A stretch of DNA of 64,000 nucleotides from Octopus vulgaris (taxonomy: Eukaryota). Below the pieces are notes generated by a model. The model did no database searches, was not told the DNA's origin, and worked only from the letters and a program-made list of their open reading frames with translations. This document shows positions 3,835 to 47,839 of the stretch, piece after piece. Each line of letters starts with the position of its first letter. Within the stretch, counting starts at the first letter, position 1. Made by a program: the position numbers and the translations under genes. The stretch lies in contig OX597822.1 in the NCBI GenBank assembly GCA_951406725.2, positions 53,072,001 through 53,136,000 on the forward strand, in the 5' to 3' direction.

Positions 3835-5362
3835 AGGTTAGGAGCAAAAATAGTTAAATAACGTTTCAGGAGTCAGCTCATGTCGACAGATATTGTTCGT
3901 CATCTTCCTTTGATCCAATCAAAACCGTCATCAACTTGCTTTAAAAGCAGATAGTAATTTTACCTTGTCCTTATTCTTAGAGCAATTTTTGAAAAGTGCA
4001 GCTCGATATAGCATTGCGGAATCTTTGCAAGTAGCTTGATAATTTAAAGTTTGCAATATTTAACATTTTGGGTACCTTACGACCAGACTGTCGATTTATA
4101 GGCATTATCGAAAAATCTATTTTTCCACGCACTAGATGATGGTCAGTCCCCCTCTCTGCCCCTCTCATGATCCGAACGCTAGAAACGTCTTTCATTTCAC
4201 GTTTCCTGATCAGAATATAATCTATGAGATGTCAGTGCTTAGATCTTGGGTGCATCCAGGTGGTTTTATATGTTTTTCTGCTTAAACTGAGTATTGGTGA
4301 CAACCAGATTATTCTCAGTACAAAACGTCAAAAGAGCTACTCCATTTTTATTGCATTTTCCAATCCCATGTCGACCTAAAACAGGCCATGAAACATAGTG
4401 TTTCCCAACTCTTGCATTGAAATCTCCCAATATGATCAGCTTGTCAGAAATTGGTACTTTCCTCAATAATCGTGCTAGATTGTCATAAGACTGTCCTACA
4501 TTTTCATCAGAATGGGATATTTTTGGCGCATAAATACTGATAACGGTAAGAAACCTAGCTTTTGTCAGTTTAATACGGCATGACATGATCCGTTTAGATG
4601 TCCCACTTGGAAGCTCTGCAATGGAGGATACTAATGTATTCTTGAGAGCAAACCCAACACCAGATTCTCTACGCTGACCTTTAGGTAGGCCTCTCTAAAA
4701 GATAGTATATCCATAAGTAGATTCATTTACTTGACCCTCACCAGAGAGACGAGTTTCAGAGAGCGTAACAATATCAAAGGAATATTTCTTGAGCTCACAT
4801 GCAATAAGTGCAGTACGCCTTTCAGGCCTCTTGTTGAAATTATCATCAAGAAGTGTGCGCACATTCCAACCACTAAAATTCAAAGGATGTTTATTTTTAC
4901 TTTTTCTTGAAGATTGTTCGACCACAGTGGCAGGATGACGACCGGGTCCAGTCTGTGATACACTGGGACATCTGCCGAGCCAGACCTGCTCTCCTGACTT
5001 TCCCAAGCATTTTTTGCCATTTACTGAATCTGTTTGAAACATTTTGGAGTAAGTTTCAAGTGCATTTTTAGGATTCTGCCAACCAACCAATTCAATGATT
5101 TTACTAAAACTTAGTGTACAGGAAATATCTGTGCAGATGAATAATTTTCAGTGGGTGTAGCTTGCACTGCACTATCCCTCACCTATTGGCCCAAGAAGAG
5201 TTTCGCCGGTGTGACATGGAAATTGACACACCGGGAACTTCCAAGCCCCCAGGTTTTATTTCGGAGACTTCCTTCTCCTAGGTAGATTACCAACCAAGTT
5301 TAAAGAGCTTCTACCTGTCCACGAGGTAAGCTATCCCATTCCAGACACCACACCGACACTCA
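3835..5362 (-). mobile_element. RTE LINE 5' part (5'UTR plus APE endonuclease), disrupted
   Basis: WNVRTL..RRTALIA..DIVTLSETR, ISIYAP, LGDFNARVG, TDHHLV motifs across ORFs 4695-5090, 4266-4586 and 3977-4195. Confidence 0.9.
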
Positions 5363-6031: not shown

Positions 6032-6104
6032 GGTTCCATGGTGTAGTGGTTATCACATCTGCTTAACACGCAGAAGGTCGTGAGTTCGAAACTCGCTTGA
6101 ACCT
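6032..6104 (+). tRNA. trnV: tRNA-Val(AAC)-like gene or SINE head
   Basis: Cloverleaf: acceptor GGTTCCA/TTGAACC (one mismatch), anticodon stem TCTGC/GCAGA with AAC at 6065-6067, T arm GTGAG-TTCGAAA-CTCGC; TTTTT at 6115-6119. Confidence 0.75.
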
Positions 6105-6964: not shown

Positions 6965-7036
<72 letters not shown>

Positions 7037-7041
<5 letters not shown>

Positions 7042-7325
7042 GGGACAAGAACGCAAAACATCCGAACAATTAGGTGATGCAAAAAGGGACAACAAAACAT
7101 CCAGATAGACGATACAAATAAACAAGGACGGGACATACAAAGATTTCTATCCTCAGTCAAGAACCAGATCCTCCTCGCAATTTCGGATGATTAATCTTGA
7201 GATTGCTCCAATCTGGTCAGCCCCAAGGAAAAACTAAGCTAAGAGCATTAGATTCCTTGGAAGAAAGCATCGATTGTATACGAAAACAAGGACAGAAAAA
7301 CAGACGATGTTACACAAATATAAAT

Positions 7326-7330
<5 letters not shown>
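7037..7330 (-). mobile_element. Repeat family Z-a in (TA)n, Penelope-like
   Basis: Homologous to 30715-31050; flanked by (TA)n on both sides. Confidence 0.6.
7142..7217 (-). ncRNA. Candidate order-scrambled hammerhead ribozyme, core intact
   Basis: ACCAGAU UGGA GCAAU C UCAAGA UUAAUCAUCC GAA AUUGC GAGGAGG AUCUGGU UCUUGA CUGAGGA. Confidence 0.55.
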
Positions 7331-17733: not shown

Positions 17734-17878
17734 TTGTATATAATTCCTGCAAATCTTCTCTTCAATTTTCTGCAATGTTTAAAGCACTGGGGATGACCAG
17801 TTGTGAGAGGAATTGATGAATGTTGATAGGCCTCTAGTTCTTCGGCAGCTTTGTTGTAACGATAACAGCCAATATATA
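17734..17878 (-). CDS. Exon 2: N-terminal half of first WSC domain
   Basis: ttctttttacag / gtaaag; phase 1 in, 2 out; YIGCYRYNKAAEELEAYQHSSIPLTTGHPQCFKHCRKLKRRFAGIIY. Confidence 0.85.
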
Positions 17879-18649: not shown

Positions 18650-19735
18650 TGGTGGTAGTCTACTCCTTATGGAAAATCATACCATCTCTTCTACATACAG
18701 CTTAGAGCGATCTTGGGGCCTGATGTAGCTTTTTAAACCAGACAATGTATTGAAAAGACGCCCACATAGTTTGCATATCTGATTTGGACCATCAAGAGCT
18801 GCATTTAAGTTCTGATATCTGTAGATCTTAAAATGCCTTTTGAGGGCCCCGTTAGACTTGCAGACCTTATGGCATACACGGCATTGAAAGGTGTGCACAG
18901 ATATATAGGCAGAATCGTTGATGATGGTTCGTTTTTCATGGGTCCGCCAATGAGATTTGAGCCCAGCAAAAGAAAGGCATGGTTTGTCACAAAATGTGCA
19001 CACAAAAAGGTCACGTAGATTCACCTTCCCGATTGCAACATTCTTCTTTAAATGTCTTTTGAGTCTTGCATGTGTCATCCTAGCCTCCTCAGAAGCTTTC
19101 ACTCCACTCCACATTTTTGTTCCCCACCCAGCTCGATCCGAAGCAAGGGTATCTATGGCCTTTGGATTCATTCTAAGTGACTTTACAGTAGTCCTTGTAC
19201 CGTTCGTAAACCTCTTTTTAGGTTTACACTGATTGCGTTTTCCCCCTGTAAGCTCGCCATAAAACAACTGTTTGGGCGTGCGTTCATCCGCCATTCGAAC
19301 AATATGGCCAGAGCATCTCATCTGATTTTTCTGAAGCATTGATTTAATTGAAGTGATGCCTGCAGACGCAAAGACATCTGTCTGGAGTAAAACAAAAGTC
19401 CCATTTAATTTTCAAAATGTGGCGAAGGCATTTTTGGTGGAATCGTTCTAATAATTTGAAATGTTTTTCACAGCATGTTCATGTTTCAGAAGAGTACAAC
19501 AGGGGTGGTAAGACAAACGATTTGTAAATAGGCAATTTTATGTTGTTATTTATATGTCGTTTGCGCCAAACGCGTGACTCCAAGCTCCAAATGCTTGTGC
19601 TGCCCTTTGAATTCGCAGAAGTATTTCTGTGTCCAGATTTCCATAATTTTGTACAGAGCTTCCGAGGTAGATGAAAGAGATAACAACCTCAAGTAACTTA
19701 TTCATAACGGAAATTCTAGTGGGGTTACAAACAGC
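18650..19735 (-). mobile_element. RTE LINE 3' part with C2H2 zinc fingers and (GTAT)n tail
   Basis: GHIVRMADERTPKQLFYGEL..G.R..PKKRF; three CxxC fingers; ends CCACCAT(GTAT)n. Confidence 0.9.
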
Positions 19736-30714: not shown

Positions 30715-31050
30715 ATGCCTTTTGTTATTTTCTTGTTGTTTGTATTTGTAATTGTGTACCATGTTCTCCGTTTTTTTGTCTTTGTTGCCGTACACATTCG
30801 CTAGCTTTCTTAAAAAAATAATCTAGTGTTCTTCGCTTAGACTTTTTGAGGGGCAACCAGATCAAACTATCTCAAGTGTAACTGCCCGAAACAGTAAGGA
30901 CTTCTGGTAACTTGACTGAGGAAAGAAGGCCACAAATGACCCGTCTTTTTTTTGCCTGTCCTAATTATTGTTTCTCCTGTCCGCCTTTGGAGCGTTTATC
31001 TGTCCGAATGTTTTATTGTCCGCTTTTGCATTTTTGTTCCATTTTTTTAA
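30715..31050 (+). mobile_element. Repeat family Z-a with scrambled hammerhead motif at 30856-30930
   Basis: ACCAGA UCAA ACUAU C UCAAGU..GAA ACAGU..UCUGGU A ACUUGA CUGAGGA. Confidence 0.6.
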
Positions 31051-31652: not shown

Positions 31653-31703
31653 AGCTTCTACAGGACTAGTACTGTTTCATTCAAGAGAAATCTTCAGGAA
31701 GCT
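31653..31703 (-). ncRNA. Type I hammerhead ribozyme
   Basis: Reverse complement of 33814-33864. Confidence 0.75.
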
Positions 31704-47600: not shown

Positions 47601-47720
47601 CTTTGAAAGAACTTTTTCTTCACCAATTCCCTTCCGATCATTCAATATGTGACGGTGTGTGTATCGCTGGCGATTTTTTTTCCTCCGTCTTCCCTTCCTT
47701 GGATCTTACCTTTTTCTATG

Positions 47721-47753
47721 TTTCTGACGAAGAGCTTCGCTCGAAACGTTAAA
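47721..47753 (+). ncRNA. Minimal hammerhead with palindromic stem III
   Basis: UUU CUGACGA A GAGC UUC GCUC GAAAC GUU AAA. Confidence 0.7.
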
Positions 47754-47839
47754 TCCGCCTTCTTTTCCTGAGCGTCGAATAACACTATACTTGTTCCACG
47801 TCCTCGCGTTGTTGCGTTTTCAGGTTTGGGTTAACTATA

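Follow-up and report, generated by a model that had tools for sequence, protein, structure and literature searches.

The window analysed here, a 64,000-nt stretch of Octopus vulgaris DNA (contig OX597822.1), carries on its minus strand a 5′-truncated copy (7036-7330) of a non-coding, Penelope-like repeat that belongs to the family we term 1a. The copy runs from 7330 to 7036, comprises approximately 295 bases with microsatellites on either side, and has its 3′ end fixed at a (TA)n tract. Within it lies a hammerhead-like motif that an initial annotation had placed at 7142-7217, in an intron of a WSC gene. A WSC-like exon, whose PF01822 match (E 8e-4) falls short of the cut-off, is indeed present on the same strand as the motif at about 17746-17877, 10.5 kb upstream, but no exon downstream of it was found within the 64-kb window. 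Rather than being a feature of the host gene, the motif is part of a Penelope-like (Naiad-type) retroelement family, and the two weakened helices of the window copy make a strong effect on the host transcript doubtful.

The segments named in the initial annotation are all present on the minus strand, and we arrange them according to the blocks S, G and C defined by Eckert et al. (2023; PMC10085705). Block S (7195-7206) consists of the 5′ strand of stem III (GCAAU, 7206-7202), residue C17 (C 7201) and the 3′ strand of stem I (UCAAGA, 7200-7195). Its triplet is AUC, and the predicted cut falls between 7201 and 7200, in agreement with the annotated site 3′ of C7201. Block G (7177-7190) holds the 3′ strand of stem II (7190-7185), GAA (7184-7182) and the 3′ strand of stem III (AUUGC, 7181-7177). 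Block C is shortened (7150-7162), with the 5′ strand of stem I (UCUUGA, 7162-7157) followed by CUGAGGA (7156-7150). The additional helix of the initial annotation (7216-7210 with 7170-7164) is also present and corresponds to a clamp that holds stems I and II, with its 5′ strand at 7210-7216 and its 3′ strand at 7164-7170.

The annotated bounds were nonetheless too short, as the motif spans about 7268 to 7142. The 5′ strand of stem II, identified from the pairing counts given below, lies at 7217-7222 (G10.1 at 7222), apart from the CUGAnGA strand. It is preceded by hairpin V (7223-7260; 7260-7253 paired with 7230-7223), which sits between helix IV and G10.1 without a gap. The 5′ strand of helix IV (7261-7268), a helix less well supported than stems I to III, finds its partner (7142-7149) directly behind A9 (7150). 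Because the motif reaches about 7268, a construct ending at 7217 would lose stem II. A 4-base link joins stem I to stem II in this copy, and links of 1-5 bases are found across families. Two changes are private to the window copy, one at 7187 that breaks a pair of stem II and one at 7143 that breaks a pair of helix IV. With one mismatch in each of these helices, the copy is probably a weakened relic.

A second copy, of family 2a and 72% identical to the first, occupies 30740-31046 of the plus strand (G10.1 at 30851, C17 at 30871, GAAA at 30888-30891 and the core at 30916-30922), and its stem letters differ from those of the first copy in compensatory fashion. The first copy and this relative at 30916 (+) are the only matches to our own descriptor in the window; one of 40 shuffled windows contained one match, and a stricter descriptor gave 0, 0 and 0 matches when 1.1 Mb of loci was shuffled three times. 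Standard descriptors miss the motif, as the initial annotation had anticipated. No hammerhead stands among the 150 Rfam matches listed for the whole window, Rfam recognizes no hammerhead in 7030-7320 (the sole match being a chance snoRNA, E 4.5), and a canonical SGC descriptor has no match in the 64-kb window. The stability of the nested fold does not exceed that of shuffled sequences (z +0.98), which is expected of a pseudoknot.

Several other features also lie in the window. A minimal type I hammerhead of the ordinary sort carried by Penelope-like elements lies at 47718-47755 (+), and three copies of another repeat, at 31697 (-), 33820 (+) and 51185 (+), carry CUGAnGA and then GAAA, with two of these copies forming a diverging inverted pair around a microsatellite tract. 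In addition, we noted a tRNA match above the Rfam cut-off at 6032-6104 (+; 56.4 bits), perhaps the head of a SINE, a C2H2 zinc-finger frame at 18677-19411 (-) and a LINE-type endonuclease fragment at 4266-4694 (-).

The carrier repeat is abundant in this 2.8-Gb genome. The window copy used as query returned 1775 first-look candidates, 40 of which were scored and showed 92-96% identity, and the second copy returned 2372; a 27-mer of the 3′ end has 2204 exact matches, compared with 0 for the control. The 3′ ends are fixed, lying at (TA)n in 82 of 94 copies, and the 5′ ends are scattered. In seven of the 94 copies the start of the next unit adjoins the 3′ end, and head-to-tail pairs have units of 720 and 772 bases, the carrier unit as a whole being about 720-770 (~750) bases in length. 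Two family 1 copies 3.7 kb apart were considered as a full element and rejected as a local duplication around a (TA)n tract.

These characteristics resemble those of Naiad elements, for which (TA)n targets, 5′ truncation, partial tandems and short tails are described in the sections of PMC8557442 that we covered, and all of which are found in family 1. In contrast to Naiads, family 1 is non-coding: it has no ORF with an N-terminal GIY-YIG and a C-terminal reverse transcriptase (RT), and no coding frame of any kind was seen in its unit. Narrow searches of 30 RT loci and the best 30 GIY-YIG loci revealed no coding partner with a family 1 or 2 end, and the GIY-YIG loci were set aside as C-terminal-endonuclease elements or unrelated sequences that hold no family 1 or 2 sequence. 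The link of family 1 to Naiads is therefore one of shared plan and target only. We take the carrier to be a non-coding Penelope-like repeat that is likely mobilized by Naiad elements, and we infer that it depends on them.

Support for the fold was sought by aligning 28 copies of families 1 and 2 with MAFFT; the alignment comprises both window copies and the 26 most central of 203 collected segments (some of them duplicated) and was built with no fitting to the fold. Across stems I-III, 94.7% of 476 cells are paired, compared with 16.6-43.5% for slid controls, and nine of their 17 pairs are changed on both sides. None of 500 shuffles attains the pairing or covariation score of these stems, while 83 of the 500 attain their number of double-changed pairs, a control that is inflated by kinship among the aligned copies. 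When six subfamily majorities are compared, 16 of the 17 pairs hold in all, and 14 of those show two to four pair types. Covariation of stems I and III as drawn in the initial annotation is thus seen both in the alignment and in the subfamily majorities. The two invariant pairs are G10.1-C11.1 and A15.1-U16.1, those that hammerheads fix; the former is named as a typical hammerhead pair in the sections of PMC4209133 covered. Family 3 was misaligned by MAFFT and is kept outside this count, anchored on the core instead.

Stem II had been described as pairing poorly, with its strand sought in the bases behind the core. Those bases were rejected as stem II, given that only 28.6% of their cells are paired, 53 of 500 shuffles score as high and the best slide reaches 60.1%. 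In contrast, the upstream strand 7222-7217 pairs with the six bases before GAAA in 89.3% of cells, and four of these six pairs are changed on both sides. With its 5′ strand located upstream of the cut site, and not behind CUGAGGA, stem II leaves the catalytic strand broken between A9 and G10.1.

This result bears on the alternative that the motif is an ordinary type SGC hammerhead whose stem II behind the core has decayed, or a chance pattern in a repeat. Family 4 (see below) can form four weak pairs behind its core, as such an explanation would have it. However, among ten sequences chosen from six families, the other nine have only 0-2 consecutive pairs there, the 28.6% pairing in the alignment is matched by shuffles as noted, and it is the upstream strand that covaries. 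We consider this explanation very improbable.

The same ten sequences are paired in 150 of 150 cells over the initial five pairs of each of stems I-III, and every triplet conforms to NUH. The other families carry GUC, GUA or GUU, and the AUC of the window copy is a triplet that is rare in nature and cleaves well (PMC1636495, in the part covered). An intact core is present in 36 of 45 copies of family 1a and in 14/19, 6/8, 20/35, 10/15 and 41/53 copies of the other five subfamilies. Among the variants listed for thousands of contigs from four public runs, position 7152 (the free N7) is the only core position that varies. The motif therefore has the CUGAnGA, GAAA and NUH elements of a hammerhead, with stems I to III in register with this core and covarying (stem II through its upstream strand). 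It departs from a hammerhead where A9 should meet G10.1: the two are not connected directly or through one or two bases, since helix IV comes after A9 (7150) and hairpin V precedes G10.1 (7222). On this evidence, the fold is very probably real and maintained by selection.

The gap in the catalytic strand is itself structured. Behind A9 runs a strand that pairs far upstream to form helix IV, whose partner is followed by hairpin V and then by G10.1, with no bases between these parts. Folds predicted for the family 1a and family 5 majorities hold IV, V and II together, and hairpin V appears in the predicted folds of the family 1a, 1b, 1c and 2b majorities. In the ten sequences, taken without gaps, helix IV is paired in 43 of 50 cells and hairpin V in 42 of 50, counts that are too low for family 5, where the wrong upstream strand was used (its stem II partner is GCCCAA, as judged by eye and from the predicted fold). 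The numbers of shuffles per 1000 that reach the IV/V score are 0, 0, 16, 69, 89, 95, 320, 362, 430 and 981, a control that gives a clear result in three sequences and a weak one in the rest. Helices IV and V are consequently less secure than stems I to III. The clamp helix has 5-10 pairs in most families, with differing letters; its columns are shifted in the alignment, and it was left out of the pair count. With strands that would continue from C11.1 to G12 and from IV to V and cross at A9/G10.1, we infer that the arrangement has the layout of a four-way junction.

The block order recognized in the initial annotation, in which the C17 site is followed by GAAA and then by CUGAnGA, is upheld, and with it the description of the motif as a non-circularly permuted, pseudoknotted hammerhead. 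Its statement that no natural precedent was known has been overtaken, as the same order was validated as type SGC (Eckert et al., 2023; PMC10085705). According to the sections of that paper covered, types SGC and CSG cleave in vitro at 0.004-0.19 per minute, SGC single motifs cleave during transcription, and both types combine a short link between stems I and II with a clamp helix, the clamp-to-stem III link being 0-44 bases in SGC. The octopus motif is similar to SGC (the HRIMA-1 motif and its variants) in its order of cut site, GAAA and CUGAnGA with an intact core, in its 1-5-base link from stem I to stem II, and in the helix that clamps the far ends of these stems, which corresponds to the 'I' helix of SGC. 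However, the stem II and clamp strands of SGC follow CUGAnGA, whereas in octopus both precede the cut site, the gap is occupied by helix IV and hairpin V, and block C is not unbroken. The motif also shares with type CSG a cyclic block order and a clamp strand that runs into stem III, but CSG opens between stem III and the clamp, in contrast to the opening inside the catalytic strand seen here.

The block order is thus already known, and what is new is the split of block C and the host. In the sections covered, Eckert et al. (PMC10085705) assume that interruptions of block C never exceed one or two bases, give no tested hammerhead with a longer insertion between CUGAnGA and stem II, report neither SGC nor CSG from the genome of a known organism, and publish CSG from two metagenomic sequences only (CSG-1 and CSG-2). 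A term search of the supplement of that paper found neither 'octopus' nor 'Naiad'. Similarly, the parts covered of PMC3088659, PMC12118343 and bioRxiv 10.64898/2026.07.22.740005 hold no split form, and a literature search that took in few subscription journals and no bioRxiv supplements found no paper tying Naiads to permuted hammerheads or describing a split block C. The min-HHRs of Penelope-like elements usually have one base between positions 9 and 10.1 (PMC4209133, sections covered), which hints that the A9-G10.1 link tolerates change.

The split plan is common to five families in the octopus genome and to one in metagenome contigs. Families 1b, 1c, 2a, 2b and 3 were found without the pairing descriptor. 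Family 3, with 273 exact pattern matches, has no sequence in common with family 1 beyond the core and corresponds to the 3′ end printed for Naiad_Obim and Naiad_Ovul. In five of 30 RT loci, its motif lies 1.2-1.5 kb behind a reverse-transcriptase frame (RVT_1, E 2e-4). The family 3 frames are broken, with text of the endonuclease end preceding the RT text; at one locus (L393), the sequence upstream of the RT resembles, by eye, the endonuclease end of Naiad_Ovul.

Families 4 and 5 emerged from a scan of 1.1 Mb of loci chosen for these families. Family 4 (2552 candidates; L248:1375-1530 (+) and L536-L560) is young, at 96-98% identity, and is the best-paired split form, with a 10-pair clamp; family 5 has 709 candidates. 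Families 4 and 5, like the single copy 1d, came to light through the pairing descriptor itself; they add breadth and, being circular in this respect, do not serve as an independent test. The Naiad_Amil pattern matches 115 stretches with the split plan in metagenome contigs, and the family 1/2 pattern has no match in metagenome contigs. A single match to an unsplit-SGC descriptor, with 6-8 pairs per stem, was observed at L081:1650-1735 (strand opposite to that listed), where it lies near a GIY-YIG match.

The published Naiad ends carry related motifs. We inspected by eye alone 50 Naiad consensus records over their final 330-380 bases, together with further passages, in the part of the PMC8557442 supplement covered. 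Eleven of the 50 ends have the split form (Bfor, 3_Chem, Amil, Aacu, Anas, 2_Movir, Plae, EuTe, Obim, Ovul and Esco), with the exceptions that stem I of Bfor has only two pairs, stem II of Esco has a mismatch, and helices IV and V are not visible in EuTe. A further six, all from nematodes, appear by eye to be complete type CSG (1-, 2- and 3_Nbra, Hcon, Hpol and Asuum). Both core halves are present in another layout in five arthropod ends (Ptep, Smim and 1-, 2- and 4_Dst), which carry them in S-G-C order with CUGAnGA in a hairpin loop, perhaps a further arrangement. No such motif was seen by eye in the part covered of the other 28 ends. Several bivalve and hemichordate ends carry a different conserved, structured motif in the place of the hammerhead. 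In the sections of PMC8557442 covered, Naiads are said to be without canonical hammerheads and bear only the flags 'HHR_core' and 'HHR_half_core', with half cores flagged in eight Naiads, including Ovul, Esco, 3_Nbra and Hpol (Craig et al., 2021).

If the cut RNA serves as template, genomic 5′ ends should gather at +1. Of 94 copies of family 1 selected through their 3′ end, 64 reach the cut zone, and 12 of these 64 end within +1 to +15, where 2.9 are expected (p 3e-5). These ends lie at +5 to +12, with none at +1 to +4, and nine of the 12 start at TA or AT, compared with 16 of 73 elsewhere. Such starts, and the absence of ends at +1 to +4, mean that short-match joining to (TA)n can explain part of the excess. 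No excess at the cut is found in family 2 (2/33) or family 3 (2/50). In the metagenome family, 12 of 67 ends fall at +1 to +11 (5.1 expected; p 0.004), a count that includes probable duplicates and has no downstream control. The genomic 5′ ends are thus mixed evidence, and we rejected their accumulation as proof of cutting.

The motif could also descend from a hammerhead but be retained for another function, such as protein binding, priming or RNA stability, with cutting lost or too slow. The 52 of 64 family 1 copies that run through the cut site, the lack of 5′-end excess in families 2 and 3, and a break in the catalytic strand that is without tested precedent all suit such a function. However, read-through is expected from uncut or re-joined RNA as well, and eleven core letters plus NUH are kept across families whose stems are unrelated, a conservation that catalysis, and not mere structure, would require. 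We judge retention for another function to be quite unlikely. Instead, the motif is probably a non-circularly permuted, pseudoknotted hammerhead near the 3′ end of the repeat, predicted to cut the element RNA after C7201.

The proposed ribozyme would be a circular permutation of SGC/CSG opened between A9 and G10.1. Its parts follow one another as the 5′ strand of helix IV, hairpin V, the 5′ strand of stem II, the clamp, the cut-site block, the GAAA block, the clamp again, stem I with CUGAnGA, and the 3′ strand of helix IV. A four-way junction formed by helix IV and hairpin V may allow stem II to stack on A9-G12 despite the break, and the resulting pseudoknot would cut after C17, at a point some 165 bases from the element's 3′ end. 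The split and CSG forms would be mutual circular permutations, of a kind that tandem repeats can generate.

Whether a single molecule can adopt this fold is a separate matter. The fold and the cut could be real and yet need two molecules or tandem units, with the loop of stem III docking on the stem I/II flanks of a partner. The links from the clamp to stem III are short (3-4 and 6-8 bases in families 1-3) and may strain a monomer, and nested predictions give a clamp and stem III hairpin with stems I and II open. Tandem units exist, and dimer action was proposed for Penelope-like min-HHRs (PMC4209133, sections covered). However, SGC monomers cleave during transcription with clamp-to-stem III links in the 0-44-base range (PMC10085705), stem III of the split form has 5 to 13 pairs, as opposed to the 1-2 pairs that force dimers, and the A9/G10.1 break persists in a dimer. 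We therefore view an obligatory dimer as unlikely.

The self-cleaving monomer can be placed in a broader scheme, which we put forward tentatively as somewhat short of probable. According to this scheme, the motif is a Naiad-clade hammerhead that stands outside the six 'possible' permutations, opened at A9/G10.1 and held by a four-way junction, and its self-cleavage as a monomer would yield unit-length circles that drive tandem insertion. The more probable reading given above likewise has two cuts in a tandem transcript releasing a free unit of about 750 bases, whose ends could re-pair through four helices (stems II and III, the clamp and helix IV), so that re-joining into a circle could be favoured. 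The circle could then serve as template, and copying round it would generate partial tandems; a circle-template model has been put forward for the hammerheads of other Penelope-like elements (PMC4209133, sections covered). The motif might, with the same tentativeness, be the ribozyme that a large part of the Naiad clade has seemed to lack (comb jellies, cnidarians, cephalopods, a crustacean and an acanthocephalan), with CSG taking its place in nematodes.

A comparison can be made with non-LTR retrozymes and with the min-HHRs of pLTRs (PMC4209133; bioRxiv 10.64898/2026.07.22.740005; sections covered), which likewise combine a non-coding repeat, a hammerhead near its end, head-to-tail units and reliance on a Penelope-like element. 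Their hammerheads are type I with a tiny stem III, whereas the octopus motif is non-circularly permuted and has a full stem III. Family 1 also differs from retrozymes in being mostly dispersed, with few tandems.

If our interpretation is correct, non-circular hammerhead permutations, so far represented by a few environmental RNAs, occur in animal genomes in thousands of copies, the CUGAnGA block can be interrupted contrary to the stated rule, and the view that Naiads multiply without hammerheads is overturned. It would also bear on whether ribozymes help Penelope-like elements or merely ride along with them, and the new opening point would be of use in ribozyme design. At one further locus (L400, about 4600), a family 1 unit lies directly behind a family 3 (Naiad) 3′ end at the same (TA)n tract, an adjacency that reflects either a shared target or a hint of dependence on Naiad.
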